Positions 4,041 to 62,776 of a stretch of DNA of 64,000 bases are shown piece by piece. The position numbers and the translations under genes are program-made. The notes below the pieces were generated by a model. The model had not been told where the DNA came from and did not search any database. It saw nothing but the letters and a program-made list of their open reading frames with translations. Position 1 is the first letter of the stretch; each line of letters begins with the position of its first letter. Source of the DNA: Candidatus Poribacteria bacterium (GTDB lineage Bacteria; Poribacteria; WGA-4E; WGA-3G); contig OY282374.1 of assembly GCA_958295815.1 (NCBI GenBank), positions 2,882,856 to 2,946,855 of the forward strand, read 5' to 3'.

Positions 4041-4136
4041 TCGGTGTTACAAACCCCTCCCACAATCTGACAATCACTTCTGGGGTTACAAACCCTTCCC
4101 ACAATGTTCCCACAATCTGAAATCACTTCAAACGTG
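4041..4136 (+). repeat. Degenerate copy of the 100-bp element: two REP hairpins (GTGTTACAAACCCC / GGGGTTACAAACCC) plus a CACAATCTGAAATCACTTCAAACG tail
   Basis: Fills the gap between the GH-like gene and the 1223-aa gene. Confidence 0.75.
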
Positions 4137-4137
4137 G

Positions 4138-7100
4138 CTACTGTCTCTTTTGTGAGAGTGCCTTAAAGTATCGCCTTAATTGTTCCCGATACTGAAATGG
4201 AATGTCCTCAAATTCCTTGGCATTAGGTGCTGCTTCTAACTTCCGAACGATTTCGAGTAATTCGGGATGCAAGGGAGGTATTTCCTGGGCAGGGACTGAA
4301 GGGTTCTGCGCGACCTCCGCCTTGCGCTGCTTACCGACATCACGTTTTTGGAGTGACTTTAAGCTATCAAGCATCCTCGTCAAAATTTGTGCTTGTCTAT
4401 CAAGCACTTCCTGATCAAGCCTGCCCTGTTGAAGTGCCTTCTCCACCTCGGTCATATCTTGGGAGACGCCATCAAGACTGCCAAGCATTTGCGCCATCTC
4501 CTCTGCGCGTTCTGCGAGTCGTTCGGTTGCCTCTCTGATCAGCTGCTGTTGGGCTGCGAACTGTTGCATCATTTGTTGAAGTCCTGGCGTTTGACCTTGC
4601 TCTCGCATCTGTTGGCTGAGCTGTTGCGCCATCTGGTTCAATTGGTCCTGACTCTCGGCGAGTTGCTGTAGCTGCTGCATCATGTTTTCAAATCCGCCTG
4701 CCCCCATCTGCTGGTTCATCTGTCCCATCGCCTCAAGCAATTCAAAGATTGCCTGATTGAGATCGGCGAGCGCTGCTTTTTGGATCGGAAGGGCAAGACT
4801 CGGTTGTCTATCTTCCAAAGCACGCGCAGCACGAGAGAGTGCGTCGTTAGAGGCGTTAAGATGCCAAACGACTTCAGGTGGCACCTCTATCTGCCGATTC
4901 CCTAACTCCCAAAGTTTGGTTGAAAGGTGCGTAATTCCGTCAGCTGTGGTAAGCTCATCCGCTGCGAGTTTTTGTAACCTCAGGATCTCATTCTGGATAT
5001 AAGCATTCGTCTGCCCGGAGGTGAGGATGTCGTTCGTTTGGGCGATGACACCCTCGTGGAGATGAGAGAGGTGAAGCCCACTTTCAACGGCTTCGCGCAT
5101 CACGGTTAGGGTTTCGTTTGCGTTTGCACCTTCCATGAATGCCAATGCGTTATCTAAACCTTGCGCAAGCTCTGTCAGGGTCTGTTCTGCGCCTCGTCCT
5201 GATTCGAGTGCCTCGCTATTCTGTCCACTTCGTAGGTTCTCGCTGGTAGCCTCAAGCATCTCAGGCAGTTTGTATTCTTGTGTAAACTGGTTGAGACGTA
5301 GGATTTCATCTGCGATTCGTTCTATTTGCGGTGGAGGGTTCTCACTATTTTTTGCGAGTTCGCCCATCTTGGTGCCGAGTTCCTCTAATTTTTCGCTGAG
5401 CTGCCCGAACTCTTCACCGACCCTATCCTCTTTCTGCGCGAGGTCGTTTAAAGGTGCAGATTCAGTGGACGCTTCCAATGTATCCATGAGTTGCTTCTGC
5501 TGTTCGGCGAGTGCAGCTGCCTGTTTCGCAGCGGCTTCCAATTCTTGCTGAAGAAGGATTTGCTCGTAGAGAGCTTTGGCGCGCTCTAATTGCTGTAAAA
5601 ACTGCTCTTGGCTGAGATTCGCTTCTGTCATTGCGGATTCTTGCTCATCCATTCGCTGTTCCGCGAGTGCCTCGGACAACTTCCTCAAAATTTCCTTATG
5701 CTCCTCAGAGAGTGCTTTTTCCATCAGATTTTGCAGTTCTTGATATTTTTCGATGGTCTCAGTGTCGAAGAGTTGGTTCTGCTCCATCTCTTCCATAGTC
5801 TCTTTCATGTCATCGACCAACTGTTTCGCTGTCTGCTCAATCTGTTTCTGGTTTTCGAGCACCTGTTGCATGAGATTTTCATCGGTGCGCGTGAGTTCTT
5901 GGTTTTTCCTGCTCATTCGCTTCATAGTATCAAGGAGGTCATCTACCAATCCGGTGGCATCTGCTTGCTCGTCTAAAAGTTCGTCAAGTCCACGCTGTTC
6001 AGCCTCCTGCTCGGTAGCAACTGCGTCATACATTTCGGAGAGCGACGGGAAGCGAAGCGTATAGGTTTGCGATTTACCGATATTCGGTCCTGAGATATTA
6101 TCGTTGTCCAATGCTTGAACGTAATAAGCGAGTGTTTCACCCGGAAAAATACCGATCCGATCCACGTCCCACGTATAGGTCAGAAAGACAGATCTGCGGA
6201 CATCGGCACTTTCGACACTCCAGCGTTTTAACGGAACATTTACCTCTTCAGCACCCTCAACTTCAACGCGATATACGAGTTGGAGTTCCTGAACACCGTA
6301 GTCATCTGTAGCCTCCACCTTTAGTTCCACGAGCATTGAATTGTCCAAAATGGTATCCCGTGCAGGCGTGATAATAGATACATCAGGAACAGCATCTTCA
6401 AAAACGGTGAGCGTCCAGTTGACGGGATCACGATTCGAGAAGCCTTCAACGTCGGCAATGTGGATATGGTAATTTCCGCTTTGCTGTGCGATAAAAGCCC
6501 CGTGCATCATACGAGGTATAGAAACTGTTTCTTGTTTCTGCCCTTCTCCGGTAGGTTGCGTAGCGGATTGCTGTCCAAGCGGCTCCTTAATTTCTAATAA
6601 CACATCACCGGATTCCTCAAACGCAAGGGATGCCTTCTTAAGCGGTCTGTTGCTTTCCCCAGTAAACACAACCTCTGTCCCAAAGAGCGTCTGAATATCA
6701 CCGGTGTTTGCTGTAAGCGTTTGGGGTTGCAGTTGCGTGTAGGCGGGATAGTTGAGGCGATACTGAAACCGTGTAACAACTGGCTCATTGCTGATTGTCA
6801 GTTGGTATTGCGTAGATGCTACCTCTTTGACAGAGACATAATATTGGAGTGGACGGCTCACTTTCTCAAGTGTCGCGCGGTATGGCGAGGCAGCGTAGGA
6901 AACTTGTCCGTTTTGTTCTGTATTGGTAGACGTGTGCTGCATAGGTAGGGATTGCCATTTTGTCGTTGACATAGGCGCATCCACTTCTCCGACGCGGTAA
7001 TAGAGCTTAACAGGCGCGCCAAAGTGCCCGTTTACTTGCGCTGTAATGTTAACATCCGTTCCGCGTTCAAGCCGGATATTGCCGGGTTGGATTTCTGTAA

Positions 7101-7809
7101 TCTGAATGGATTTCTCCAGATTTCCGGGGTCTATTTGCAGGGTTGTGGGTAGCGTTTGAAAAGCCTGCGCGAAGTCTATGAAAGCAGAAGGCAAAAAGAG
7201 ATACGTGAGGAAGAGAAGCCCAATACCCGCAACAGCGATCCCTGCGTTTCGTCTGATTTTCTGAAACTCAGCCTGAAACACCTGTTTGAACTGTACCTTT
7301 TCCACATCTCTACCGGCATGGACAATCAGGTATTCAATAAATTCTGGTGCATATCCGAGTCGGTTGTCCACCAAGGTTTTCTGGAGTTGTACAGCACTCA
7401 GGATTCGATTTTCGGATGTGTGTTCGCTTTCTGTCTGTGTCAATTCAAGGCGTGCTGCGACCGCTGCATCGGTCAATTTGCGACGGAATGGCAGCACAAG
7501 CGTTCGGATAACTGTGAAGATGGCAACACCTATTGCTAACAGCAGAATACCGATGCGTATCCAGTGTGCAAACGGGAACTGCCATGCACGCAAACTCAAC
7601 GCCAAAATTATGAGGACCGCTGTCATCACAAGCGCAAGAACACCAACAGACTTCAGGAATCCTTCTGAGAAGATGAGCCATCGCCATTGCCGTCGAATGG
7701 CACGGAGCCGCGCAATCAGATTTTCGTAAGCGTGGTGGACATTTTGTGTATTCATAGCGTAATAGTTGTCAGTACGGGTTGCTACGCAACCCTTTCGACT
7801 GTCGGTCAT
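4138..7809 (-). CDS. Large (1223 aa) membrane-anchored protein with an extensive Gln/Glu-rich coiled-coil C-terminal region (BatD-like?)
   Basis: Two N-terminal TM helices, a large middle domain, then about 600 aa of heptad-like Q/E/L-rich sequence. Last gene of an operon with BatA-VWA and DUF4159. Confidence 0.7.
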   Translation of the reverse strand: MTDSRKGCVATRTDNYYAMNTQNVHHAYENLIARLRAIRRQWRWLIFSEGFLKSVGVLALVMTAVLIILALSLRAWQFPFAHWIRIGILLLAIGVAIFTVIRTLVLPFRRKLTDAAVAARLELTQTESEHTSENRILSAVQLQKTLVDNRLGYAPEFIEYLIVHAGRDVEKVQFKQVFQAEFQKIRRNAGIAVAGIGLLFLTYLFLPSAFIDFAQAFQTLPTTLQIDPGNLEKSIQITEIQPGNIRLERGTDVNITAQVNGHFGAPVKLYYRVGEVDAPMSTTKWQSLPMQHTSTNTEQNGQVSYAASPYRATLEKVSRPLQYYVSVKEVASTQYQLTISNEPVVTRFQYRLNYPAYTQLQPQTLTANTGDIQTLFGTEVVFTGESNRPLKKASLAFEESGDVLLEIKEPLGQQSATQPTGEGQKQETVSIPRMMHGAFIAQQSGNYHIHIADVEGFSNRDPVNWTLTVFEDAVPDVSIITPARDTILDNSMLVELKVEATDDYGVQELQLVYRVEVEGAEEVNVPLKRWSVESADVRRSVFLTYTWDVDRIGIFPGETLAYYVQALDNDNISGPNIGKSQTYTLRFPSLSEMYDAVATEQEAEQRGLDELLDEQADATGLVDDLLDTMKRMSRKNQELTRTDENLMQQVLENQKQIEQTAKQLVDDMKETMEEMEQNQLFDTETIEKYQELQNLMEKALSEEHKEILRKLSEALAEQRMDEQESAMTEANLSQEQFLQQLERAKALYEQILLQQELEAAAKQAAALAEQQKQLMDTLEASTESAPLNDLAQKEDRVGEEFGQLSEKLEELGTKMGELAKNSENPPPQIERIADEILRLNQFTQEYKLPEMLEATSENLRSGQNSEALESGRGAEQTLTELAQGLDNALAFMEGANANETLTVMREAVESGLHLSHLHEGVIAQTNDILTSGQTNAYIQNEILRLQKLAADELTTADGITHLSTKLWELGNRQIEVPPEVVWHLNASNDALSRAARALEDRQPSLALPIQKAALADLNQAIFELLEAMGQMNQQMGAGGFENMMQQLQQLAESQDQLNQMAQQLSQQMREQGQTPGLQQMMQQFAAQQQLIREATERLAERAEEMAQMLGSLDGVSQDMTEVEKALQQGRLDQEVLDRQAQILTRMLDSLKSLQKRDVGKQRKAEVAQNPSVPAQEIPPLHPELLEIVRKLEAAPNAKEFEDIPFQYREQLRRYFKALSQKRQ

Positions 7810-7870
7810 CAGTTAAAGAGGTATTTGACGTAAATAAGCCATCTCTTAACGGACAACTAACAACTCTCCA

Positions 7871-8578
7871 TTAATGAATTAGGGCATAGACAGCGATATT
7901 CACCGCCATTTTTGCTGCGAATTCGCGGACTTCAGGGGTATCCTCTGGATGGACCTTGGCATCCTCAAGACCGTCGCCAATGTCAGCACTGTAAGCGTAG
8001 TAAGCAACCATTCTTCCATCGTGAAAGAGACCAAATCCTTGTGCGGGTTCGGCATCGTGTTCATGAATCTTAGGCAGCCCCTTGAGTTCGTAGAAACATC
8101 GATAAATTAGGTGTGTGTTGGGTATAGGTTGTAATTCCTGATCGGGGAATACCCTTCGCATTTCACGACGGAAACTCTTGTCAAGTCCGTAATCATCGTT
8201 GGCAAACAAAAAACCGCCACTCATGAGATAGTCCCTCAAAATCTCCACTTCGCTTTCAGTCAATCGGATATTTCCGTGTCCTACAAGGTAAAGCATGGGA
8301 TACTGGTAAAGCGTGTGATCTGTCAACTTAAGGATCACTCTATCTTCGGCTGTTTCAATGTCTGTGCGCGTGCGGAGGAGATGGAGCCAATTTTTGATTG
8401 CTGTTGGGTCGCCATACCAATCCCCGCCGCCGCTATAGTGGATCTGCGCGATAGTGAATTTCTCACCGGCTTTCGGGGTGGCAATTGTGGTGTAACACAG
8501 GAGACAACACACAATAACGGGTAGTCGCCGTTTTATTAATTGTAGCATAAAACATCTCACGTTTTCTATCCAACCCAC
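7871..8578 (-). CDS. DUF4159-like protein
   Basis: 235-aa ORF with the pattern HYSGGGDWYGDP...NDDYG, characteristic of DUF4159 proteins found beside BatA/VWA genes. Confidence 0.55.
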   Translation of the reverse strand: MGWIENVRCFMLQLIKRRLPVIVCCLLCYTTIATPKAGEKFTIAQIHYSGGGDWYGDPTAIKNWLHLLRTRTDIETAEDRVILKLTDHTLYQYPMLYLVGHGNIRLTESEVEILRDYLMSGGFLFANDDYGLDKSFRREMRRVFPDQELQPIPNTHLIYRCFYELKGLPKIHEHDAEPAQGFGLFHDGRMVAYYAYSADIGDGLEDAKVHPEDTPEVREFAAKMAVNIAVYALIH

Positions 8579-8582
8579 ATCT

Positions 8583-11000
8583 TCAAGTTAATCCGATCCG
8601 CTTACGCAAGAACCATTCAGTGCCTAACAGCCCAACAACCGCAATGAGTACCAGTGGATGTGTCCAGAGTTCACGTTCAGCATCGACGAATACCGGATTT
8701 TGGACTTTGGCAACGTTCTCAGGAAGCGATTCTGCCTCGGCTATCGTAAAATAGGCACCACCGGTCTGTTCGGTGAGTTGTTTTAGCAGTGTTTCATTGA
8801 GTTGTGGTGTCTCCAACTCTGCAAGCTGCGGATGTGCATAAATTTCGATTTGATCTTCGCCCAACGTAAGGTTTCCACTTCTGCCGACCGCCTTAATACG
8901 ATAAGTTCCTTTCTGTAATAACTCGAATTGAGCAGTATAGAGATTTCCGATGTTAGAGATTACGCTTTGTTGCGATGCTAATCCGTTTGTATTCTCAATT
9001 GCACTGCGGATTTGGAGTCGAAAGGGTGCTCCCTCAGGTGGTATAGCCTCAATCTGAACTGTCGCGTCAGTTTGCCGTTGATAGGTTTCAGAATACAGAT
9101 ACGCCGTCACTTTGGCTGTATCCCCTATCGTATAGGTTTCGGCATCTGCGGAGAGGTAGAGTTTCTCATCATCGGTGTCGGTTGCCATCCACCGGATCAC
9201 TTGTGCCCAAAATCGTGGATAGATAGACCGGTAGCGACTGTTTTTAAAGGTTTTGACTCCGAAATCCCAATTCCAGAGACCCTCTGCCGCAATAAGGAGA
9301 CTTTTACCTAAACCTGATCTCTGAAGGACCAGAAGAGGCACACCCTTTCCATCCTCCATAAGGGCAGTCGCGCCACCTCTGAGACGGAAACCACTAAAAG
9401 ATCGCGATAAGGAAACGGGCAGGTTTTGCCATAAGGTAGCATTATTTCCGACCAGTCCGTCGGTGCCGTTTCTCTGTGCGCTCTGCTTTTCAGCAATCTG
9501 GAGCATCGGATGGAACGCCCCAGATTGGGTCAACTGTAGCGTGAATTCTGTGTCGTGTATACGGCACCCCCTCGCCGGTATGTCAACCGGCAAAAGTTGC
9601 GCCAATTCCGTGTTTTTAAGTCCATTTACACCGAGCGTATTCCGGGAAGCGAGAAAAATAATAGGTTTGCCTTGCATCTCAACGAAATCAACAATCGCGA
9701 GTTGCTGTGCCGTGGTAAGATGTGCTTCCCCCAAATCCCCTAAAATCAGCACATCGTATTTAGCGAGTTCAGTTCGCGTTTCAGGGAATCGCGGTGTTTC
9801 GGATGCTGGTGTGGTTTGCGGGTAATACCCATCTAAGCGTTTGATCGCTGTATCTGCAGGCGTTTGCCCTGATTTGCTACGCGATAAGATTGCATAAGTC
9901 GCTTCAACATCCGGGTCTCGCTCCAATGCCCGTTTTAAGAAAGTGGAATCCCATCTGGGTCTGCCTTCGAGATAGAAGACGCTGAGTTTCGCTTTCACGA
10001 CTTTCACGGAAAACGTCTTTTGATTGTTCGCCTCTGTCAGTTCACCATCGAGTGCTGGAAGTGTGACCGTATATTGGAAGTTTCCCTCAGTCTGAGGTGT
10101 CAACTTCAGTTCGATCACCTGTTTTGTGGTTGTATTCGCTTGCGTGCTTTCCGTATTAGATTCAAAGGTTAGCGTTGCAGCATCTATGAGTGTATTTTCA
10201 TTTACTTCACGCAAAGACAGTCGCGTCGTCTTGCCGGTGTACCCCGTTTGTGTTACATTCACACGAACAATGCTCTCATGACCTGTGTAGGCGACGGGTG
10301 CGTAATCAATGTGTTGAATTTGAATATCTTTTGGTGGATCCACAGCACCTACACCGACAGCATAGATCGGCACGTCCAAAGCAGTAATCGCATCTAAAGG
10401 GAACTGTCCAGAATTGTGCCCGCCATCAGTAATTAGGACAATACCAGCAGTCTGCTGCCCTTTCCATGTAGATGCTGCCTCTTGTATTGCTTTTCCAACA
10501 TTGGTGAGTGCGCCTTCAGGTTCAAACTGTGGGATTTCGGCATTAACATTAACATCTTGCCCAAGCGGAACACTCTGATGTAGTCCCGTATCGAAAGGAT
10601 AAAGATGCACCTCAAATCGATTTCGCAGTGTCTGAAGGAATTCCCCCGGAATATCAAATAGGAGTCGGTTTACCTGACGCAGTCTCGACTCCGGTATTTC
10701 ATCAGTGGGGACATCCACGAGCTCCATACTTCGCGACGTATCTACCAGAATGGAGAGGTGTGTCGGTGGTGTGATGTCCCTTTTTTCGATAACGATGGGG
10801 GCTAAAAGACAAGCAAGCAGGATTGACGCAGCGAAGATTCGCAGTACAACGAGCAAAACCCGATACCTCGGATGTATAGGACGTGCTACCCGGAAGTAGA
10901 CGAACACGGTTATGCCAATGGCAATACCGATACCGAGTGCAACTGCCCACCCGGGCCAAAAATAGGTGAATCGCATATCTCTCCTAATTCCTTTCTCCAC
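8583..11000 (-). CDS. BatA-like aerotolerance-regulator N-terminal double-TM domain protein with VWA domain
   Basis: N-terminal double transmembrane segment (TIGR02226/PF07584-like). VWA MIDAS motif LVDTSRSM. Long C-terminal extension. Confidence 0.7.
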   Translation of the reverse strand: MEKGIRRDMRFTYFWPGWAVALGIGIAIGITVFVYFRVARPIHPRYRVLLVVLRIFAASILLACLLAPIVIEKRDITPPTHLSILVDTSRSMELVDVPTDEIPESRLRQVNRLLFDIPGEFLQTLRNRFEVHLYPFDTGLHQSVPLGQDVNVNAEIPQFEPEGALTNVGKAIQEAASTWKGQQTAGIVLITDGGHNSGQFPLDAITALDVPIYAVGVGAVDPPKDIQIQHIDYAPVAYTGHESIVRVNVTQTGYTGKTTRLSLREVNENTLIDAATLTFESNTESTQANTTTKQVIELKLTPQTEGNFQYTVTLPALDGELTEANNQKTFSVKVVKAKLSVFYLEGRPRWDSTFLKRALERDPDVEATYAILSRSKSGQTPADTAIKRLDGYYPQTTPASETPRFPETRTELAKYDVLILGDLGEAHLTTAQQLAIVDFVEMQGKPIIFLASRNTLGVNGLKNTELAQLLPVDIPARGCRIHDTEFTLQLTQSGAFHPMLQIAEKQSAQRNGTDGLVGNNATLWQNLPVSLSRSFSGFRLRGGATALMEDGKGVPLLVLQRSGLGKSLLIAAEGLWNWDFGVKTFKNSRYRSIYPRFWAQVIRWMATDTDDEKLYLSADAETYTIGDTAKVTAYLYSETYQRQTDATVQIEAIPPEGAPFRLQIRSAIENTNGLASQQSVISNIGNLYTAQFELLQKGTYRIKAVGRSGNLTLGEDQIEIYAHPQLAELETPQLNETLLKQLTEQTGGAYFTIAEAESLPENVAKVQNPVFVDAERELWTHPLVLIAVVGLLGTEWFLRKRIGLT

Positions 11001-11045
11001 ATATTATAGTGTAATTAGGGGAGAGATGTCAAACGGAATTTCAGT

Positions 11046-11103
11046 TGTGGGTTATAAGTTATAGGGAGTTATAAGTTATAGGTTAGTAAGTTATAAGTTA
11101 AGA
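11046..11103 (+). repeat. Degenerate short iterons (GTTATAAGTTATAG repeated about 4x) in a divergent promoter region
   Basis: GGGTTATAAGTTATAGGGAGTTATAAGTTATAGGTTAGTAAGTTATAAGTTAAGAG. Confidence 0.6.
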
Positions 11104-11165
11104 GTCGGGAACGGAGTTCCGTCCTACAGAAAAATAAAATGTCCTGACGATATTCGTAAGTAAGG

Positions 11166-11195
11166 TTGACAATTTGCAAAGTGCTGTGATAAAAT
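11166..11195 (+). promoter_or_regulatory. Sigma70-type promoter (TTGACA, 17-18 nt spacer, TAAAAT) for the 11236-12164 operon
   Basis: TTGACA at 11166-11171 and TAAAAT at 11190-11195. Downstream GGAG RBS 6 nt before the ATG at 11236. Confidence 0.6.
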
Positions 11196-11235
11196 ATGCT
11201 TAATCCAAATTCTTTTATAGGCATGGAGCAGAATA

Positions 11236-11609: not shown

Positions 11610-11639
11610 TTCTATTTTCGTAGAAAGGTATAGAGGATT

Positions 11640-12164: not shown

Positions 12165-12188
12165 TAGGTGCGCTTGGGAGCGCACCTA
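12165..12188. terminator. Bidirectional stem-loop between convergent genes (TAGGTGCGC-TTGGGA-GCGCACCTA)
   Basis: Perfect 9-bp stem between the zinc-ribbon gene (+) and groEL (-). No clear U-tract on either strand. Confidence 0.45.
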
Positions 12189-12200
12189 TCGTAAATTCGT

Positions 12201-13850
<1,650 letters not shown>

Positions 13851-14773: not shown

Positions 14774-14848
14774 GGGATAGTATAACAGGAGTATAGACTG
14801 GTGTCTATAAATTTTGGAGGGTGTGCCAGAGAGGTTTTACGCGTCGGG
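14774..14848 (-). promoter_or_regulatory. Promoter/operator module copy 1 (TAGACA-17-TATACT on the minus strand; palindrome TATAGACTGGTGTCTATA at 14792-14809)
   Basis: About 75-bp element repeated at 16659-16740, 52325-52375 and, degenerate, at 15261-15305. The perfect 7-4-7 palindrome overlaps the -35. Confidence 0.6.
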
Positions 14849-16568: not shown

Positions 16569-16658
16569 TTTCGAGTCGGCTTAAAAGTTTCCCCGACGAT
16601 TGATGAAAAGGCATCTAAAAACGTGAGGAAATAACATTTATTATTTTAAGGTAGCAAC

Positions 16659-16740
16659 TTGGATTAGTATAACAGGGATTATAAACTGGTGTCTATAAAT
16701 TTTGGAGGGTATGCCAGAGGGATTCTGCGCGTAGGTTAGA
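16659..16740 (-). promoter_or_regulatory. Promoter/operator module copy 2 (TAGACA-17-TATACT on the minus strand; core TTATAAACTGGTGTCTATAA)
   Basis: Near-identical to 14774-14848. Its upstream flank is fused to the TAGCAACTTGGATTA tail of the 100-bp repeat family. Confidence 0.55.
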
Positions 16741-23020: not shown

Positions 23021-23050
23021 GTCGGGGTTACAAACGCCTCCTACAAAGAG
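23021..23050 (+). repeat. Single REP-like hairpin GTCGGGGTTACAAACGCCTCCTACAAAGAG
   Basis: Same family as the 45245, 55794 and 36337 copies. Confidence 0.7.
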
Positions 23051-25400: not shown

Positions 25401-25465
25401 TGGACAGGTGTTGTCGGGAATTGGAGTTCCCTCCTACAGAAGAACGGAGTGCCCTTGCTTTTGAA

Positions 25466-27737: not shown

Positions 27738-27957
27738 CATAAATCGGGCTTACAAAGCCCTCCTACAAGAATGGCTGGATCACTACATAAATCGGGCTTA
27801 CAAAGCCCTCCCACAAGAAAAGCCCTTCCACAAGATGGATCGGTTTATTACATAAATCGGGCTTACAAAGCCCTCCCACAAGAAAAGCCTCCCACAAGAT
27901 GGGTTGGGTTATTACATAAATCGGGCTTACAAAGCCCTCCTACAACGGAGAACTTTC
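27738..27957 (+). repeat. Tandem array (4 units, about 55-60 bp period) of the REP-like hairpin AAATCGGGCTTACAAAGCCCTCC[C/T]ACAA
   Basis: Four direct copies separated by AGAAAAGCC..CACAAGATGG..TTATTACAT spacers. The ORF track reads through them as a false N-terminus of lnt. Confidence 0.85.
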
Positions 27958-29609: not shown

Positions 29610-29627
29610 CTATTTATGGAGAACCCC

Positions 29628-30732
29628 ATGCTTGTAGATTTAAAAACGCAGGTTGAAGAAATGCACACCCGTCTCTTAGAACTCGGAGACTATCTTTGAC
29701 CTGGCTGAAAAACGGAAAGAACTAACAGAACTCGAAGAAACAACCATCTCTCCAGATTTCTGGAGTAACAACCAACGGGTCCAAGAAGTCAATCGGCGTA
29801 TCTCGGTTCTCCGAGACGAACTCGGTGCTTATGAGGGACTCAGCCTCAAAATTGAAGACATCCAGACCTTACTTGAACTCGCCAGTGAAGAGAACGATCA
29901 GAGTTTACAGACCGAAATTGTAGACGGTTTAGAGAGTGTCGCGAGTCGCCTTGAGCAGATGGAACTCCAGTTAATGCTGAGGGGTGATTATGATGAGAAC
30001 AATGCGATTCTCAACATACACTCTGGTGCTGGTGGCATCGATGCCCAAGACTGGGCGGGTATGCTGATGCGAATGTACCTCCGCTGGTGTGACCAACGCG
30101 ACTATCAGACAGAAATCGTAGATCTCACTGCTGGAGATGAAGCTGGGATTAAAGGTGCGACCATCCTCGTTAAAGGTGCATCCGCTTACGGCTATCTACA
30201 AGCTGAAGCGGGGGTGCATAGACTTGTCCGGTTGTCTCCGTATGATTTTAACAAACGTCGGCACACCTCCTTCGCCGCTATTGGCGTTACGCCCGAAATC
30301 GACGACTCTGTTGAGGTCGATATCCAAACAGACGACTTACGGGTAGACTTCTATCGCGCAAGTGGCGCAGGTGGACAGCACGTCAACGTCACAGACTCAG
30401 CCGTTCGGATCACACATAAGCCTACCGGAATTATTGTGCAGTGCCAAAATGAACGCTCCCAACACAAAAACCGAGAGATTGCCATGAAACTGCTCCGTTC
30501 GCGCCTTCATGAGAAATATCGAGCAGAACGCGAAGCAGAACTTTCAAAACAGCGAAGCGAACGCTTGGACATCGACTTTGGTAGCCAAATCCGCTCTTAC
30601 GTGCTACACCCCTACCAACGCGTCAAAGATTTACGTACAAATGTTGAAACAGGGAATGTTAACGCCGTATTAGATGGGGCGTTAAATCCATTCATTGAAG
30701 GCTATCTGAAAATGAAGGCACAGCAGAAATAG
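29628..30732 (+). CDS. prfB: Peptide chain release factor 2, with programmed +1 ribosomal frameshift
   Basis: Frame 0 is ATG(29628)...GGAG-AC-TAT-CTT-TGA-C. The in-frame TGA at 29697 sits after 23 codons, preceded by the SD-like GGAG. Frame +1 continues into the ORF carrying GGQ (SGAGGQHVN) and SPY/SPF motifs. Confidence 0.9.
29694..29700 (+). promoter_or_regulatory. prfB +1 frameshift site CTT TGA C
   Basis: Matches the conserved RF2 autoregulatory shifty site. Internal SD GGAG lies 3 nt upstream. Confidence 0.9.
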
Positions 30733-30832
30733 GACATGGGTAAATTTTTGATTCATTTGTCTGCCTGGAATCCTGTTTTGGTGAGGTCATTCAGTTTTTG
30801 GGTTTTTGTCCAGTTTAATGGGAAAGTCGCGA

Positions 30833-30941
30833 GCGGGAATTTGTTCCTACACGGAGAGTCGGGAATCGGAGTTCCCTCCTACAAATAGCAGTCAGCAGTC
30901 AGCAGTCAGAAAGAGTCGGGAATCGGAGTTCCCTCCTACAG
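30833..30941 (+). repeat. Cluster of three REP-like hairpins (GGGAATCGGAGTTCCC-TCCTACA variant) separated by a (CAGCAGT)3 microsatellite
   Basis: GAGTCGGGAATCGGAGTTCCCTCCTACAA appears twice, with a degenerate GGGAATTTGTTCCTACAC copy upstream. Spurious ORF 30806-31003 covers it. Related single copies at 11102-11129 and 25404-25430. Confidence 0.8.
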
Positions 30942-35456: not shown

Positions 35457-35524
35457 CCTAAATCCCCCTTATCAGGGGGACTTGGGACATATCTAAATCC
35501 CCTTATCAGGAGACTTGGGACATA
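35457..35524 (+). repeat. Tandem 35-bp direct repeat containing the CCCCC-TTATCA-GGGGG hairpin
   Basis: CTAAATCCCCCTTATCAGGGGGACTTGGGACATAT, then a second copy with 2 deletions. Confidence 0.7.
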
Positions 35525-35539
35525 TCCGCTGACAGGAAT

Positions 35540-36336: not shown

Positions 36337-36370
36337 GATTCGGGGTTACAAACCCCTCCTACAAAGAGCA
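36337..36370 (+). repeat. Single REP-like hairpin GATTCGGGGTTACAAACCCCTCCTACAAAGAGCA
   Basis: Same family. Lies downstream of lolD. Confidence 0.75.
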
Positions 36371-36485: not shown

Positions 36486-37367
36486 ATGTTGATTTATATC
36501 GACGGAGAATTTCTACCGAAAGCAGAGGCGAAAGTTTCAGTGTTTGATCACGGTTTGCTATACGGCGATGGTGTTTTCGAGGGAATCCGCTCCTACAACG
36601 GTAGAGTTTTTAAACTTGATGTGCACCTCGAACGCCTTTACGATTCCGCGAAATCGATTATGTTACAGATCCCGATTCCGATCGAAACGATGAAGGAAAA
36701 GGTGCTGGAAACACTCCGTCTAAACCACCTCAGGGAAGCTTATATCCGCTTGATAGTCACTCGGGGCATAGGGGATCTGGGATTGGATCCAGATAAATGT
36801 CCGACACCGAGTATCATTATTATTGCAGACAAGATTACCCTCTATCCACCAAAATTTTATGAAGAAGGACTTGAGATTGTAACCGCCTCGGTTCGACGGA
36901 ACTATGCGGAAGCCATCAATCCGCGTATCAAGTCATTGAACTATTTAAATAATATCTTAGCGAAAATTGAGGGCAAGCAAGCCGGTGCTGAAGAGGTCTT
37001 GATGCTGAATGCAGAAGGCTATGTTGTTGAATGTACTGGCGATAATATATTCTGGGTAAAGAACGAAGTCCTGGTTACACCGCCAGTCCACATGGGGATT
37101 TTGGAGGGTGTCACCCGAAATAGTGTTATTGATCTCGCTCGCGAGGCGGGGATGCGGGTGGAAGAGCGCGTCTTCACACGGCACGACCTCTATATTGCTG
37201 AGGAATGCTTCTTGACTGGTACTGCCGCTGAAGTCATCCCTGTCGTGAAGATTGATCGGCGCGCCGTCGGTGACGGGCAACCTGGAAAAGTAACACAGAA
37301 ACTCATTGATGCATTTAGGCAGTACGCAAATAGTTACGGAACGCTAATCTATCCCTCTGAGGCATAA
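36486..37367 (+). CDS. ilvE: Branched-chain-amino-acid / D-amino-acid aminotransferase (fold type IV)
   Basis: FDHGLLYGDGVFEGIR...EVLMLN...ECTGDNIFWV blocks typical of class IV aminotransferases. Confidence 0.75.
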   Translation: MLIYIDGEFLPKAEAKVSVFDHGLLYGDGVFEGIRSYNGRVFKLDVHLERLYDSAKSIMLQIPIPIETMKEKVLETLRLNHLREAYIRLIVTRGIGDLGLDPDKCPTPSIIIIADKITLYPPKFYEEGLEIVTASVRRNYAEAINPRIKSLNYLNNILAKIEGKQAGAEEVLMLNAEGYVVECTGDNIFWVKNEVLVTPPVHMGILEGVTRNSVIDLAREAGMRVEERVFTRHDLYIAEECFLTGTAAEVIPVVKIDRRAVGDGQPGKVTQKLIDAFRQYANSYGTLIYPSEA

Positions 37368-42010: not shown

Positions 42011-42297
42011 ACGGCACACGGAGTGTGTCTGCTACTCCTGTTACGGCACATGGAGTGTGTCTGCTACTTTTAACTCACGACAACGGCACACGACGGAGTG
42101 TGTCTGCTACTTTTAACCCACGACAACGGCACACGGAGTGTGCCTACTACTTTTAACTCACGACAACGGCACACGGAGAGTGTCTGCTACTCCTGTTACG
42201 GCACACGGAGTGTGCAGCGTTTATTATTGACATCTCACTGCTTTCGGGGTGTCTGCTACTCCTGTTACGGCACACGGAGTGTGCCTACTACTTTTAA
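42011..42297 (+). repeat. Tandem array (about 7 units, 33-43 bp) of hairpin repeat ACGGCACACGGAGTGTG[C/T]CT[A/G]CTAC...
   Basis: Units alternate between a ...CTGCTACTCCTGTT form and a ...CTACTACTTTTAAC[T/C]CACGACA form. The hairpin core is GGCACAC-GGA-GTGTGCC. Two more copies at 1256-1351. Spurious ORFs 41733-42307 run through it. Confidence 0.85.
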
Positions 42298-45236: not shown

Positions 45237-45244
45237 AACAACCG

Positions 45245-45340
45245 GGAATTCGGGGTTACAAACCCCTCCCACAATGTGAAAATTACTTCAAACGCTTTGT
45301 TGAAGCATCTAAAACTTGTTAGTAGCAACTTGGATTAAAA
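45245..45340 (+). repeat. 100-bp composite intergenic element, copy A (REP hairpin GGGGTTACAAACCCC + TCCCACAATGTGAAAATCACTTCAAACGC... + TAGCAACTTGGATTA tail)
   Basis: Shares more than 85% identity with 55794-55890 and 62692-62776. Has internal palindromes GTGAAAATCAC and AAACG...CGTTT. Confidence 0.85.
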
Positions 45341-51940: not shown

Positions 51941-52073
51941 TTGGTTATTGGTTATAAGTTATTGGTTAAGAAGCGGATAGCGGTGAGGTTATGGGTTGTG
52001 AGTTATGGGGGATGTGGGTTATAAGTTGTCTGAACCAGGATTTACAGGATTCAAGGATTTGCAGGATTATGGA
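51941..52073 (+). repeat. Degenerate short iterons (GGTTATAAGTTAT / GTTATGGG, then CAGGATT x3) in a divergent promoter region
   Basis: Same GTTATAAGTTA motif cluster as 11046-11103. Confidence 0.6.
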
Positions 52074-53563: not shown

Positions 53564-53595
53564 GTAAGTTGTGGGAACAGACTGGATAATAGAAA

Positions 53596-55741: not shown

Positions 55742-55793
55742 TTTTATATTGGGAATTGGCAGTCGGTATGTGATTTTTATATTAGATTAACGG

Positions 55794-55890
55794 AGAATTC
55801 GGGGTTACAAACCCCTCCCACAATGTGAAAATCACTTCAAACGCTTATTGAAACGTTTAAAGCCTGTTAATAGCAACTTGGGTTAGATTA
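55794..55890 (+). repeat. 100-bp composite intergenic element, copy B
   Basis: GAATTCGGGGTTACAAACCCCTCCCACAATGTGAAAATCACTTCAAACGCTTATTGAAACGTTTAAAGCCTGTTAATAGCAACTTGGGTTAGATT. Confidence 0.85.
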
Positions 55891-55936
55891 GACATCCCTT
55901 TACCGATAGCCGATAACGCATAAAAGGAGATATACT

Positions 55937-56935: not shown

Positions 56936-57017
56936 AAAGCGTAAATATTGTTTCGGCGGGTCTCAGTGCCCGCCGATTGCCGAGTCTTGAGAAATAATAC
57001 CTAACAGGAATAGACCC

Positions 57018-58115: not shown

Positions 58116-58259
58116 AGATAAACAAAAGTAGGACAGTGCTTTTAATGTTCTACACTGCTGAGAAAAACACACAAGAAATTCATAGACAACACCTGCGAGA
58201 ATGTAAAGCAAAGACACATTATGCCATAATTGACATGATTTTCATAAAAGGAGAAAAAA

Positions 58260-59654
58260 ATGCCAGTTGTCATTCCCCGCCTGATTGTTGAAGTGTTCCA
58301 ACATACAAACTTCCGTGGCAGAATGGGGTATGTTGTAGAACCTGTTCAGTTTACAAGGGACATCGGATTTCAAGACAATATATCTTCCGTTCGTGTTTAT
58401 AAGGGTCCAAACTTTTCGTCGAACCCGAACTATAAGGTTATTTTTTTCCAACATCGCAATTTCCGTGGTCAAAAATTAGCACTCGGTCCGGGATTTTATC
58501 CGAATTTGCACGACGTCGCTTACAATTTCGCCGATAGAATTTCATCGATTAATTTCGGTTCCACATTAGAAGTTGTTGGACCAGAATGGGGCACGGTTCC
58601 AATGATTGTAGACTGCTATGAGCATGTCAACTTTCGTGGTAGAAAAATCACGATTCTACGCGATATTGCTAATCTGCGGGATGCGCAAGGCGGAACTTGG
58701 TTTGAAGATCGTATTTCGTCGATTCGCATTTTTAAAGGACCAGATTTTCCGCCAGAGGGTGCAGAAGTTGTGTTCTATGAACACCCTGACTTTGAAGGGG
58801 CACCGCTGGCGATTCGCATGGAGCCGATGGATTATAAGAAAGAGTTGCCTAATCTTCATCTACTACCTCAGAACTTTGGGGACTCCATCTCCGCTGTGAA
58901 GATTGAGGGTTGGGCATCCTCTGGAGAATTCACAGAGATGGTTTTTGAAGATGAGTTTATTGGCAACCGGATGCGTCCAGAATGGCGATGGGACGACCCG
59001 AAAGGCGGTGGCTCATGGGCAGAACGCCAAGGTTACTTGGAAATGCGAACTGAACCTGGGCAAGACCTCTGGCACGGTGCAGACGGTAGCGGTGGTGATA
59101 TGAGTGCGCCGCGCCTGATCATGGAAGTGAGAGGAGACTTTGCTGTCGAAACCCGCATGCGAATCTCGTCACAACTGAGAGAACACGGCGGTATACTGAT
59201 ATGGAAGAACCCGAACAGGTTTCTCCGTCTGGAGAAGACCTCTGGACCACACGCCTTCAGAGGCGATGTCCGATTTGAACGTCACGTTAACCGCGTTTTC
59301 CATCTACAGGGACGGAGCAGTGGACTTAGGGATGTGCGAGAACTCTTCTTACGCGTAGAACGTAGAGGCAACCAGTTTTCCGCTTTCGCCAGTGGTGACG
59401 GTATTCAGTGGAAAAGTTGCGGACAAACCAATGTGGGTATGGGAAATTCGGTCAATGTTGGGGTCCACTCACTGTGTCCGGGCAATATTCCACCAACACT
59501 AACACGTTTCGACTTTTTCCGAGTGTTCAAACGGAGGAGTGAAGTTGCTGAATATCGTCCTATGGGTGTTGGACGGCGCGGTCAAATTTCCGATGAAGAG
59601 CGCGAGCGTCGGATCGCTAATCGTCGAGAACGCGCGGGGCGCGACCTGTTCTAA
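58260..59654 (+). CDS. Beta/gamma-crystallin-repeat (x4) protein fused to a concanavalin-A-like (DUF1349-like) lectin/glucanase domain
   Basis: Four Greek-key repeats with the Y/F-x-H-x-N-F-x-G ... ISS[I/V] signature (VFQHTNFRGR..ISSVRV; FFQHRNFRGQ..ISSINF; CYEHVNFRGRK..ISSIRI; FYEHPDFEGAP..ISAVKI). C-terminal half GYLEMRTEPGQDLWHG...LIWKNPNRFLRLEK. Confidence 0.6.
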   Translation: MPVVIPRLIVEVFQHTNFRGRMGYVVEPVQFTRDIGFQDNISSVRVYKGPNFSSNPNYKVIFFQHRNFRGQKLALGPGFYPNLHDVAYNFADRISSINFGSTLEVVGPEWGTVPMIVDCYEHVNFRGRKITILRDIANLRDAQGGTWFEDRISSIRIFKGPDFPPEGAEVVFYEHPDFEGAPLAIRMEPMDYKKELPNLHLLPQNFGDSISAVKIEGWASSGEFTEMVFEDEFIGNRMRPEWRWDDPKGGGSWAERQGYLEMRTEPGQDLWHGADGSGGDMSAPRLIMEVRGDFAVETRMRISSQLREHGGILIWKNPNRFLRLEKTSGPHAFRGDVRFERHVNRVFHLQGRSSGLRDVRELFLRVERRGNQFSAFASGDGIQWKSCGQTNVGMGNSVNVGVHSLCPGNIPPTLTRFDFFRVFKRRSEVAEYRPMGVGRRGQISDEERERRIANRRERAGRDLF

Positions 59655-59778
59655 ACACACCCATTCTTTTGGGTTCCGATCTGAAACCCATTTATCCCGC
59701 GTGCTCATGAATCGAAACATTTAAGGTGAGGTGCTCGTGCCTCACATCACACTATTTTCCAGATCCAAGGAGGACATC

Positions 59779-60654
59779 ATGTTTGAAAAAGATAGCGTCT
59801 ATCGCCAGAAAGCATGTTTTATCAACAAGCAACGATTTTTCACAATAACCTTCCTCCTTCTCGCATTCTTGATATGGAATGCGCAGCCTGCCGATGCGAT
59901 CATCGGTGCGGTTGAAGATGGCTTAGTTGCCTACTGGACCTTTGACAAGGATACAGTAAAAATTAAAACGGAGGCGGTAGATCTGCTATCAGGATTAGCA
60001 GCTGCCGTCCATGGAGATCCTGAACTTGCCCCCGCTTCCGATTGCAAGGTTGGCGAGTGTGTTCTCTTCGATGGCAGTGTTGATCGGCTTCTTGTTGAGG
60101 ATTCAACACCACCGACAATCGATCGAGATTGGGAAGAGATTACCCTTGAGTGCTGGGTGTTTATCAATGCCTTAGACGATAGTTGGAACCGAATTATTTC
60201 ACTTGATGACATGCCTGCGAACACTGCAGTGGCAAGTCTGTACTACGATGACGATGATAACCAAAACGGCTTTTTTGTCCGTGCTGGCGGACAATCCACA
60301 CAAGCAGCACAGGATAATGTGCTGGAGGACATTGCACTCGAAGAGTGGTTACATCTCGTTGGGACCTATGATGGCTCAACGGTTCACTACTATGTGAATG
60401 GGAAATTAGAGAAAAAGTACGCCATGAAGGGTGGCAAACTTCCGAAGGGCGGGCTGCTTCTCGGCATCGGCGACCGGTCAGATGGCTGCGATTGCGATAC
60501 AATCCAGGGATATATTGATGAATTCCGTATCTATGACCGGGTCCTGAACTTAGCAGAAGTGGAAAATAACATGAATGCCACTGGGCTTGATGTTAGTCCT
60601 TCTGAAGATCATCTGAGTGTTACATGGGGACATATAAAGGCGCGACGGCGATAA
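59779..60654 (+). CDS. Secreted LamG/concanavalin-A-like lectin domain protein
   Basis: Signal peptide. LamG_3-like block WLHLVGTYDGSTVHYYVNGKL...GYIDEFRIYDRVL. Confidence 0.6.
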   Translation: MFEKDSVYRQKACFINKQRFFTITFLLLAFLIWNAQPADAIIGAVEDGLVAYWTFDKDTVKIKTEAVDLLSGLAAAVHGDPELAPASDCKVGECVLFDGSVDRLLVEDSTPPTIDRDWEEITLECWVFINALDDSWNRIISLDDMPANTAVASLYYDDDDNQNGFFVRAGGQSTQAAQDNVLEDIALEEWLHLVGTYDGSTVHYYVNGKLEKKYAMKGGKLPKGGLLLGIGDRSDGCDCDTIQGYIDEFRIYDRVLNLAEVENNMNATGLDVSPSEDHLSVTWGHIKARRR

Positions 60655-60708
60655 AAAAGCAATTCCACAATTGCGTTTGAAAACGTCGGTGTGGACGGAG
60701 ATAAATTT

Positions 60709-61716
60709 ATGGAAACGATTGGAGTTGGCGTTATCGGTTGTGGTGGCATGGGGAGAAGCCTCGCTACCAGTGCGCACGCTGTTGAAGGGATAGAGGTCGT
60801 CTGCGTTAGCGATGTGCAAGAAGCATTGTCAGAAAAACTTGCTGCAGACCTTGATGCATCTTATACATTGGATTACCATGAACTACTCGCCGATGACCAG
60901 ATTCGTGCTGTGCTGATAGCGTCACCACCGTTTATGCACTCGCCGATGGCGGTCGATGCTGCCAACGCAGGCAAACACGTCTTTTCTGAGAAACCGATGG
61001 CACCGACATTGGATGCTTGCGATGCGATGATTGCAGCTGCGGAAGAAAACGGCGTCAAACTCACAATCGGTTTGGTGTGCCGCTATCACGCGACGCACTC
61101 GAAAGTTCGTGAGATTGTGCAGAGCGGTGAACTCGGAGCACCTGCCTGTATGATGGTGCATCGTATTGGTGGACCGTGGCGTAGCGGATATAGTCACACC
61201 CCGTGGCGACTGGAACGTGCGAAATCTGGTGGGAGTCTCATGGAAATTAATGCCCACGAAATCGACTTTATGCGCTGGACATGCGGAGATGTAGCCTCTG
61301 TCTATGCTGCTGGTGGGCAGTATGGACCAGATAAGAGCGACTACCCAGATGTCGTGCTCGCCTCGTTGCAGTTTGAGAACGGTGCAGTCGGTTTGCTCCA
61401 TTCCAGCCATGTTTCCGCAGTTGGTGGATATGGTGGACGCGTTGATTGCGAAGGTGGATCGATTTATTTTCCGCAGATTTGGGGTGGCGATGCGACTATC
61501 CAGATTAAACCTTTTGAAGGCGAAGGACGGCAGATTAAAATAGCAGACATTACGGTGCCACCACCGGTTCAGGAGGAGATTCGCGTTTTCGCTGATGCGA
61601 TTCGTAATGATACATCTCCACCTATTACAGGATTAGACGGCCGCGCCGCAGCCGAAATCGCATTGGCAGCCTACCAATCCGCTGAGACCGGACAATCCGT
61701 TCCATTACCATTATAG
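60709..61716 (+). CDS. Gfo/Idh/MocA-family oxidoreductase
   Basis: IGVGVIGCGGMG Rossmann motif. EKP motif (FSEKPMA). Confidence 0.85.
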   Translation: METIGVGVIGCGGMGRSLATSAHAVEGIEVVCVSDVQEALSEKLAADLDASYTLDYHELLADDQIRAVLIASPPFMHSPMAVDAANAGKHVFSEKPMAPTLDACDAMIAAAEENGVKLTIGLVCRYHATHSKVREIVQSGELGAPACMMVHRIGGPWRSGYSHTPWRLERAKSGGSLMEINAHEIDFMRWTCGDVASVYAAGGQYGPDKSDYPDVVLASLQFENGAVGLLHSSHVSAVGGYGGRVDCEGGSIYFPQIWGGDATIQIKPFEGEGRQIKIADITVPPPVQEEIRVFADAIRNDTSPPITGLDGRAAAEIALAAYQSAETGQSVPLPL

Positions 61717-61734
61717 TTGTTAGAAGGAGGAAAG

Positions 61735-62673
61735 ATGAAAATATCAGTCTGGGATGGTGGACTTTCAGATAGCTATCTCAAACAGGTGACACAATTGGGT
61801 GCGGACTGCATTGACTTTGGAGGTGGGAATGCTTTTCCCGGTGTCGAAGAACAGGGCTACCCCGACTTGGATGAAGTGCTGAAAATCAAGAAACGGATAC
61901 GCTCCTGGGGTCTCGACATCAATCGCGTAACACTTCCGAATATCACAGAGAAATTCATGCAGGGGCAGCCCGGTGGCGAAATTGAACTGGAAAACACGTG
62001 TAATGCTCTGAAGGTCTTTGCTGAAGCGGGTGTGCCTATTGCCCGCCAGAGATTCTGGGGAGATACGTTTGATTATCTCATGACTCGCTACTCCTCGGTT
62101 CATAGAGGTGGTTATACCTCTCGTGGGGAAAGCCGTGCTGCGACCCAGGACCCGTCACCCACCCCGACGATGGAAGCACTCGACGAATGGTGGAAACGGT
62201 TCAGTGAAATCTATGGTGCACTTGTTCCTATCGCCGACGAGTACGAGATCAAACTTGCTATCCATCCATCAGATGTACCGAACCCAGACACACCACTGGG
62301 TGGTCTCGGCTTTCACCGTGTGATTGACGCCTTTCCGAGCAGAAATGTTGGCTACCTTTACTGTTGTGGCACCCGTGCTGAAGCAGGGGGCAGTGCTATC
62401 GTCCTTGACGAACTCAACAACTACGGACGCAAAGGACGTATTTTCATGGTTCACCTAAGGAACGTGCGCGGCAGTCTCGCAACAGCCGAGGCATTTGAGG
62501 AAGTTCTCCTTGATGACGGTGACATGAACGTTTTCAAAATCATCCGAGAGCTACAAAAGGTCGGGTTCGATGGATGTATCAATGCCGATCACATTCCGAG
62601 ATTGGAAGGTGATGTTGGCTTAGCCTATTCCGTCGGCTACATCAAGGCACTTTTCGCGGCATTAGTGGCGTAA
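61735..62673 (+). CDS. uxuA: Mannonate dehydratase (UxuA-like)
   Basis: GGAGG RBS. Blocks parallel E. coli UxuA (WDGG vs RWYGP; AIHPSDVPNPDTP vs AVHPDDPPRP; HLRNVRG vs HLRSTMRE; INADHIP vs MRPDHGH). Confidence 0.7.
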   Translation: MKISVWDGGLSDSYLKQVTQLGADCIDFGGGNAFPGVEEQGYPDLDEVLKIKKRIRSWGLDINRVTLPNITEKFMQGQPGGEIELENTCNALKVFAEAGVPIARQRFWGDTFDYLMTRYSSVHRGGYTSRGESRAATQDPSPTPTMEALDEWWKRFSEIYGALVPIADEYEIKLAIHPSDVPNPDTPLGGLGFHRVIDAFPSRNVGYLYCCGTRAEAGGSAIVLDELNNYGRKGRIFMVHLRNVRGSLATAEAFEEVLLDDGDMNVFKIIRELQKVGFDGCINADHIPRLEGDVGLAYSVGYIKALFAALVA

Positions 62674-62691
62674 CTTCACCCCAAGTTACCA

Positions 62692-62776
62692 CGGAATTCG
62701 GGGTTACAAACCCCTCCCACAATGTCATAATCACTTCAAATGCTTTGTTAAACGTTAGTAGCAACTTGAGTTAACT
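62692..62776 (+). repeat. 100-bp composite intergenic element, copy C (internal about 12-bp deletion)
   Basis: GGAATTCGGGGTTACAAACCCCTCCCACAATGTCATAATCACTTCAAATGCTTTGTTAAACGTTAGTAGCAACTTGAGTTA. Confidence 0.85.

Follow-up and report, generated by a model that had tools for sequence, protein, structure and literature searches.

Short hairpins scattered through the intergenic DNA of a Candidatus Poribacteria genome are, in our interpretation, repetitive extragenic palindromic (REP) elements of a REP/RAYT system, RAYT being the REP-associated tyrosine transposase; we put the probability of this reading at about 0.87. The stretch analyzed, which we call the window, is 64,000 nucleotides long (assembly GCA_958295815.1, contig OY282374.1, positions 2,882,856 to 2,946,855 of the forward strand). 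It holds at least two REP families and probably a third, each presumably with its own RAYT lineage. An initial annotation of this DNA had already assigned the hairpins to a RAYT system, and that assignment is upheld by the GT[AG]G layout of the copies, by RAYT genes flanked on both sides by REPs in other Poribacteria, by the score of one such RAYT against a curated model, and by inverted doublets of the kind called REPINs (hairpin-forming pairs of REPs).

Hairpins in the window

A REP-like unit is present at every site that the initial annotation had listed. Each comprises TCG, a 6-bp G+C-rich stem with a 3- to 4-nucleotide (nt) loop, and the tail TCC[C/T]ACA. A recount replaces the earlier figure of at least 14 copies with 16 complete ones, which are spread over 10 intergenic sites, accompanied by some partial tails, and found on the plus strand in every case; one interval given before, 25404-25430, was offset by about 10 nt from the element itself. 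The sites are as follows.

4041-4064 and 4079-4103, plus strand: two REPs of the GGGGTT-ACA-AACCCC type, each slightly degenerate, with a duplicated partial tail at 4108-4114 and minus-strand genes on either side
11105-11128, plus strand: REP copy of type C (GGGAA-CGGA), immediately past a GTTATAA heptamer tandem repeat at 11051-11100
23022-23045, plus strand: REP copy TCGGGGTTACAAACGCCTCCTACA, with one stem mismatch
25414-25438, plus strand: type C REP copy TCGGGAATTGGAGTTCCCTCCTACA, in a divergent intergenic region
27744-27767, 27792-27815, 27857-27880, and 27921-27944, plus strand: four tandemly arrayed REPs of the GGGCTT-ACA-AAGCCC type, with two partial tails (about 27819-27834 and about 27883-27898) and a unit of 48 to 65 bp
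30827-30851 (degenerate), 30859-30883, and 30916-30940, plus strand: three type C REP copies in the gap between prfB and lysS, with a separating run of AGCAGTC heptamers
36340-36363, plus strand: REP copy TCGGGGTTACAAACCCCTCCTACA, with lolD on one side and an aminotransferase gene on the other
45244-45338, plus strand: type A composite of about 95 nt upstream of grpE, in which a REP (45250-45273) is joined by another small hairpin, CTTCAAACGCTTTGTTGAAG, and by GTTAGTAGCAACTTGG
55793-55886, plus strand: type A composite upstream of a xylose-isomerase-like TIM-barrel gene, with its REP at 55799-55822
62692-62774, plus strand: type A composite (REP at 62698-62721), upstream of a GNAT/FemAB-like gene

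Stems of the GGGGTT/GGGCTT-ACA type occur at 4041, 4079, 23022, 27744-27944 (four copies), 36340, 45250, 55799, and 62698, and GGGAA(T)-CGGA stems occur at 11105, 25414, 30827, 30859, and 30916. The type A composite (about 95 nt), common to three window sites, is a longer form within the GGGGTT/GGGCTT type.

Read on the minus strand, each copy is 5'-GT[A/G]G-GA-hairpin-CGA, a unit of about 25 nt, in which the TCC[C/T]ACA tail is the reverse complement of GT[AG]G plus GA. A GT[AG]G tetranucleotide beside the foot of a small hairpin is what defines a REP (PMC6006769). In the "short REP" class, the tetranucleotide lies 1 to 2 nt from a shortened stem, and foot plus stem measure 10 to 13 nt (Quentin et al. 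2018, PMC6006769). In the Poribacteria elements, the foot (4 + 2) and the stem (6) add up to 12 nt. The adjacent tetranucleotide was initially said to be CTAC in every case; that is too narrow, for 9 of the 16 copies have CTAC and 7 have CCAC (GTGG on the other strand), both of which fit GT[AG]G.

These motifs are enriched in the window and are oriented. TCCYACA occurs 32 times, versus 13.3 ± 3.5 in shuffles, and a regular expression for TCGGG...TCCYACA with one substitution allowed returns 16 matches on the plus strand and none on the minus strand. Fifteen of the 16 are real; the match at 36577 is due to chance, and the degenerate copy at 30827 is not caught.

To avoid circularity, candidates were also chosen by their flanks alone (TCG...TCCYACA), both in the window and in related loci that were collected with a 25-mer core, TCGGGSTTACAAASCCCTCCYACAA, by scanning one genome per species. 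Exactly six consecutive outer base pairs form in 192 of 245 flank-selected matches, compared with 0.15 in interior shuffles. Across all sequences, the tail reads TCCTACA 112 times, TCCCACA 108 times, and TCCAACA 15 times. A strict detector applied to the window and 103 related loci (851 kb in all) found 194 copies, mostly intergenic, versus 0.2 expected. The elements combine a short palindromic hairpin, a GT[AG]G set 2 nt 5' of the hairpin foot, and many mostly extragenic copies, as REPs do.

The stems differ in sequence and keep their pairing. Distinct stems include GGGGTT/AACCCC, GGGCTT/AAGCCC, GGGAAT/GTTCCC, and GGGATT/AATCCC, and further ones are GCGAGC/GCTCGC, GCGACC/GGTCGC, GCGATT/GATCGC, and GAGGTT/AACCTC. 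The 3-nt-loop and 4-nt-loop classes were analyzed apart, because a mixed MAFFT alignment placed a gap in the stem. In the resulting gap-free alignments, two-sided changes affect four of six stem pairs in the 3-nt-loop class and three of six in the 4-nt-loop class; the compensatory pairs are 2, 4, 5, and 6, with GC/CG/AU, UA/GC/CG, and other combinations. The covariation score exceeds those of all 500 shuffles and of every slid register, for alignment rows that were preselected for pairing, and the unbiased test is the flank-selected count of 192 of 245.

Could the hairpins act in RNA, as terminators, attenuators, or mRNA-stabilizing 3' hairpins that selection on expression keeps in place and no transposase spreads? 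E. coli REPs have been reported to stabilize mRNA and to terminate transcription (background in PMC6006769), and 7 of 12 window sites (the 10 above and two of a third family described below) are codirectional with their flanking genes. Among three copies scanned for terminators, one was flagged, on the minus strand only. An intrinsic terminator would have a T-run past the hairpin, and the TCCYACA tail has none. Orientation relative to genes is also mixed: four or five window sites are antisense to local genes, and the elements of the related loci are codirectional with both neighbors in 52 cases, antisense to both in 32, convergent in 19, and divergent in 21. With this mixture and no T-run, the elements are not linked to transcription. 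Searches of Rfam gave no match for them, and a role in RNA would leave the inverted doublets, the whole-unit tandem arrays, and the flanking of RAYT genes unexplained. We regard this explanation as highly improbable.

Organization and RAYT genes in other Poribacteria

The 25-mer core is found at no fewer than 103 loci in at least 43 assemblies, and 41 of the 43 among those listed are labeled Candidatus Poribacteria. The window fits this distribution. Its gene content includes GroEL, Lnt, PrfB, LysS, LolD, BamA, and a type IX secretion system (T9SS) sorting tail, and its LysS has no match above 94% identity in the protein collection, where the top named matches are Poribacteria.

In the related loci, adjacent pairs less than 100 bp apart include 17 inverted doublets with GT[AG]G facing outward, versus 3 in the opposite inverted arrangement. 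The spacers of the inverted doublets are fixed at 16 to 17 or 24 to 25 bp, and the remaining close pairs lie in tandem on one strand. When folded as single-stranded DNA, one doublet forms a long hairpin (-40.8 kcal/mol, z = -11.2). Inverted doublets of this kind are the organization of REPINs and of bacterial interspersed mosaic elements (BIMEs) (PMC3116915). Whole-unit tandem arrays occur in the related loci too. Those of L034, L066, and L001, with periods of 43 to 68 bp, resemble CRISPR arrays; this identity was rejected, as their "spacers" are identical and the arrays are whole-unit tandem duplications.

Several observations concern what surrounds the copies in these genomes. At L015 2400-3020 and L034 4100-5300, the REP doublets are enclosed by a larger palindromic unit; its terminal inverted repeats are ATAGGTGTCAACTTAAG / CTTAAGTTGACACCTAT, and this shell, which resembles a miniature inverted-repeat transposable element (MITE), is itself tandemly repeated. 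REP copies also lie in frame inside real genes (L013 5134-5157, L056 2012-2035, L042 3409-3432, and L061 5685-5708), for instance in the linker of a class A penicillin-binding protein (transglycosylase-transpeptidase) and, in a protein resembling a ferredoxin oxidoreductase, between the POR_N domain and the TPP domain. Spurious open reading frames (ORFs) arise from REP arrays as well, with peptides such as "...GVTNPSHKR...".

A candidate partner transposase came from phmmer: with E. coli RayT as the query, the ORFs of the related loci gave one match, a 157-amino-acid (aa) ORF at L020 4091-4564. This protein matches Pfam Y1_Tnp (E = 1.2e-10). Its score with NCBIfam NF047646, "REP-associated tyrosine transposase" (REP_Tyr_transpos; cutoff, 80), is 124 bits, and with the IS200 model NF033573 it reaches 36.8, below the cutoff of 55. 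A search for homologs gave 103, most of them 157 aa long and many on contigs of 3 to 7 Mb. In an alignment of 29 sequences, P68, H70, H72, W109, Y130, N134, V136, and R137 are invariant, and of the 92 longer homologs that were aligned, at least 95% keep the corresponding motifs (MPDHxH, W, and YxxNPVR). The gene flanked by REPs thus carries the HUH and catalytic tyrosine motifs and scores as a RAYT, not as an IS200 TnpA. A profile search of the PDB with this family placed E. coli TnpA-REP (4ER8) first, at 7.3e-16, with ISDra2-type transposases behind.

Upstream of the L020 gene lies a REP doublet, and downstream lie four tandem copies and one inverted copy, all of the GGGGTT/GGGCTT family. Further RAYT genes and the REPs that flank them are as follows.

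L105 RAYT, 82% identical to that of L020: flanking REPs of the GGGGTT/GGGCTT type
L111 RAYT, 71% identical to that of L020: flanking REPs of the GGGGTT/GGGCTT type
L110 RAYT, 55% identical to that of L020: flanking REP GTAGGAGGGAACTCCGATTCCCGAC, which is the window's GGGAAT-CGGA type (type C)
L112 RAYT, 53% identical to that of L020: flanking REP GTAGGCGCGCTTTGTAAGCGCGC
L106 RAYT, 60% identical to that of L020: flanking REP GTAGGCGGGGCATCCTGCCCCGCC

A RAYT gene flanked by its own REPs, the arrangement called a REPtron, is therefore found in relatives for both window types, at L020, L105, and L111 for GGGGTT/GGGCTT and at L110 for GGGAAT-CGGA. Because the REP type differs with the RAYT lineage, no fewer than two REP families, whose RAYT partners are separate, are represented among the variants of the window. 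The covariation noted initially is genuine in the sense that compensatory changes affect four of six pairs, and in part it comes from the presence of separate REP families, each linked to a RAYT lineage of its own.

Another possibility is that the hairpins are ends or miniature derivatives of IS200/IS605 elements, like palindrome-associated transposable elements (PATEs) or MITEs, moved by a multicopy IS200-type TnpA and not by a domesticated, single-copy RAYT. The Pfam family that the associated protein falls in, Y1_Tnp, is named "Transposase IS200 like," and a single-sequence search of the PDB matches ISDra2-type transposases. Against these points stand the scores above the curated RAYT cutoff and below the IS200 cutoff, the placement of 4ER8 above insertion sequence transposases once a profile is used, and a tyrosine motif of the RAYT type (YxxNP) instead of Y...Q. 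No tnpB adjoins the RAYT genes examined. An insertion sequence or PATE would show TnpA between defined hairpin ends in multiple identical copies. What was found instead is that the six RAYT neighborhoods read (L020, L105, L106, L110, L111, and L112) all differ, with the gene between housekeeping genes and flanked by REP arrays that have no defined left and right ends. The probability that we give to an IS200-type origin is accordingly very small. As to RAYT copy number, individual look-ups each placed the gene at one position, on a contig of chromosome size.

Other candidate RAYTs were discarded. A hit of a RAYT-motif regular expression in L086 was a false positive, and two ORFs beside dense arrays, L034 27-896 and L032 6873-7604, match nothing in Pfam and do not represent RAYTs. 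At L110, the stop codon of the RAYT gene lies inside the GTAG of the first REP, and the unit repeated in the tandem array downstream (1975-2200) comprises the REP and the final stretch, about 75 nt, of the RAYT coding sequence, which indicates that array growth copies flanking DNA.

We propose the following mechanism. A single-domain HUH/Y1 tyrosine transposase of 157 aa, the RAYT, would be encoded once elsewhere in the genome and would bind the hairpin in single-stranded DNA, as E. coli TnpA-REP and the IS200/IS605 transposases do. The GT[AG]G beside the hairpin foot would position cleavage and rejoining, which would copy or move the element into intergenic DNA. We infer both this chemistry and the mobilization of the REPs by analogy; for mobilization, the evidence is indirect and consists of the presence or absence of copies between relatives and the lineage-specific expansion described below. 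The inverted doublets (REPINs) of sister genomes would be the likely replicative unit, and the singlets and tandem arrays of the window would then be derived forms or a locally amplified form.

Turnover, a third family, and strand orientation

Five syntenic loci (L100, L107, L108, L109, and L113), 75 to 87% identical to the window in nucleotide sequence within genes, were compared with it. At the orthologous site of the 27744-27944 array (between the DUF5916 gene and lnt), L113 and L108 have no recognizable REP; the same is true of the prfB/lysS cluster in L108, L109, and L113, and the 36340-36363 copy (between lolD and ilvE) is missing in L100, L107, L108, L109, and L113. The relatives at these three REP-free sites are about 82 to 87% identical in nucleotide sequence. 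Over the shared region, 19.7 to 42.9 kb, 6 sites bear REPs in the window, versus 0 to 2 in the relatives. Most window copies are missing in syntenic relatives, which makes the expansion lineage specific. The gap between ompH and lpxD holds an old copy in minus orientation: L100 has it intact, in L108 and L107 it is decaying, and in the window it cannot be recognized. Taken together, the comparison shows lineage-specific gain and slow decay, as expected of REPs.

A few results weigh against the REP/RAYT interpretation. The window contains no RAYT, as initially stated (a profile search gave nothing at E ≤ 1), and the RAYT or RAYTs of its own genome are presumed from congeners. It also has no inverted doublets, which the REPIN model holds to be the mobile unit. 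Finally, the available relatives yielded no clean junction between an empty site and a filled site, because their intergenic DNA is too diverged (genes about 82 to 87% identical). At the DUF5916/lnt site, the right junction does align (TCCTACA|ACGGAGAAC in the window versus ...TTCCCACGGAGAAC in L113 and L108), and this single case (n = 1) does not allow a target rule to be stated.

Beyond the two families described above, a third REP-like family, GGCACAC-GGA-GTGTGCC-TACTAC (ACGGCACACGGAGTGTGCCTACTAC), has nine copies in the window, all on the plus strand.

1262-1284 and 1322-1344, plus strand: two copies, with GTAGTAG plus the hairpin on the opposite strand
42013-42291, plus strand: tandem array of seven copies, some of them degenerate, with a period of about 40 bp, between lpxD and ubiA

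The array at 42013-42291 is missing in L107 and L108. The 23-mer of this family occurs in at least 120 metagenome contigs of median G+C content 62%, often as outward-facing inverted doublets, and one contig with such a doublet (L186) encodes a RAYT-like C-terminus about 340 nt away from it. Unlike the GGGGTT/GGGCTT family (family 1), the third family extends well beyond Poribacteria.

Counting this family, all 12 independent REP-like sites of the window (10 belonging to family 1 or type C, 2 to the third family) share the plus strand, and the direction of genes flips at about 25.3 kb. The single shared strand, the presence of at least two families among the variants, and the third family had all escaped the initial annotation. 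The nominal two-sided probability of 12 of 12 on the same strand is about 5e-4, in a post hoc test. A replichore-linked orientation was considered and rejected as a general rule, since REP orientation in chromosome-level Poribacteria assemblies is mixed within 5 to 60 kb. To our knowledge, strand-specific insertion of IS200/IS605 is the sole precedent for a one-strand bias. Such insertion has been documented for IS200/IS605 insertion sequences (PMC6006769), and a replichore-specific orientation in Pseudomonas fluorescens SBW25 was noted for tandem REP arrays only (Bertels and Rainey, PMC3116915).

The uniform orientation invites a different explanation, namely, that the hairpins are DNA sites selected by the host, bound by a nucleoid protein, gyrase, or some strand-polar system, and that their orientation has a polar function like that of KOPS or Chi and has nothing to do with transposition. 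Both the 12 of 12 sites on one strand, whatever the gene direction, and a G-rich GGGAGGGG in the minus-strand core are in keeping with it. The mixed orientation at the 5- to 60-kb scale in the chromosome-level assemblies is not, nor is the variety of hairpin sequences that have the GT[AG]G foot alone in common; copies are missing, moreover, at orthologous sites of close relatives, and the flanking of RAYT genes would go unexplained. We consider host-selected sites very unlikely.

That the copies of the window all face one way is nonetheless an open observation that the REP/RAYT interpretation does not explain. One extension of that interpretation, which we find doubtful, is that three REP families recently expanded here as single units and direct tandem arrays, that single REPs and not REPIN doublets were copied, and that insertion was strand specific. 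Strand-specific insertion might, for example, be coupled at the replication fork to one of the template strands, or there might be local same-strand hopping. If this were true, the genome would be a natural record of RAYT directionality. Given a complete genome, the lineage-specific expansion and one-strand orientation could inform how RAYTs disseminate REPs.

Known systems and further repeats

Good descriptions of REP/RAYT systems exist for Proteobacteria and for a small number of other phyla. The Proteobacterial systems, such as REP/BIME with TnpA-REP in E. coli and the REPINs of P. fluorescens SBW25, share many features with what is described here: GT[AG]G 5' of a short hairpin; extragenic location, high copy number, doublets with outward tetranucleotides, and whole-unit tandem arrays; and a small HUH/Y1 gene with its own REPs (a REPtron), in several families with a RAYT each. 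The closest likeness in layout is to the "short REP" group of subclass 2.5, in the 2-nt tetranucleotide offset and the 12 nt of foot plus stem (Quentin et al. 2018, PMC6006769). Points of contrast with the Proteobacterial systems are the very short stems (6 bp) of the Poribacteria elements, RAYT motifs (DHIH, WQ, and YCYENP) that differ from the published subclass signatures, and, in the window, the restriction to same-strand singlets and direct tandem arrays.

IS200/IS605 elements (IS608 and ISDra2) resemble the present system in the HUH/Y1 fold and in subterminal hairpins with a guide tetranucleotide on single-stranded DNA. They differ from it in that the units here are 25 nt long and carry no gene, the transposase fails the IS200 model cutoff, and tnpB is absent.

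Cyanobacterial small dispersed repeats (SDRs) are likewise dispersed hairpin repeats of about 25 nt, sometimes beside heptamer repeats, as at 11051-11100 and 30887-30909 in the window. A cyanobacterial SDR/HIP1 origin was dropped: the window has one HIP1 site, a T9SS sorting tail, and matches to Poribacteria. The T9SS sorting tail is not a cyanobacterial feature.

The type of system and its mechanism are already known, and the accepted picture of how REPs and RAYTs work is unchanged; the Poribacteria host is new to the searchable literature, where full-text searches found nothing relevant linking Poribacteria with REPIN, RAYT, or repetitive extragenic palindromic elements. A full set of REP families, REPIN doublets, REPtrons, and RAYT lineages in about 40 assemblies of an uncultivated, sponge-associated phylum widens the known range. 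Also, the TCG-hairpin-TCCYACA signature is a simple aid for annotators of metagenome-assembled genomes of Poribacteria, who can use it in masking or interpreting repeats between genes, assembly breaks, and spurious ORFs (such as those with "GVTNPSHK" peptides).

Among the REP-bearing structures of the window, the type A composites lie 90 to 160 nt upstream of three unrelated plus-strand genes (grpE, the xylose-isomerase-like gene, and the GNAT/FemAB-like gene). A tail related to the composite is present at 4064-4130, and TAGCAACTTGG is also found at window position 16652 and at four other Poribacteria loci. A promoter or regulatory role for the composite is possible, if unsupported: a promoter scan gave one weak sigma-70-like match and no consistency across copies.

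Other repeats are present too. Heptamer tandem repeats (GTTATAA, AGCAGTC, TTGGTTA, and similar) occur at 11051-11100, 30887-30909, 51941-52068, and 63803-63832, and two of them directly abut REP copies. At 35458-35526 lie two tandem copies of a small palindromic repeat, CTAAATCCCCCTTATCAGGGGGACTTGGGACATAT, the core of which, CCCCCTTATCAGGGGG, also occurs in L078, L087, and L098, which makes it a further dispersed family. A 60-nt direct repeat (GGAGTATAGACTGGTGTCTATAAATTTTGGAGGGTGTGCCAGAG...), unrelated to the REPs, is found at 14788-14847 and 16676-16735, in two intergenic regions about 1.9 kb apart, and its copies are 87% identical.

Finally, the segment upstream of prfB (29610-29960) contains a programmed +1 frameshift context (CTTTGAC) that is conserved in L108 and L109, and the 257-aa prfB ORF listed for the window is the downstream frame only.

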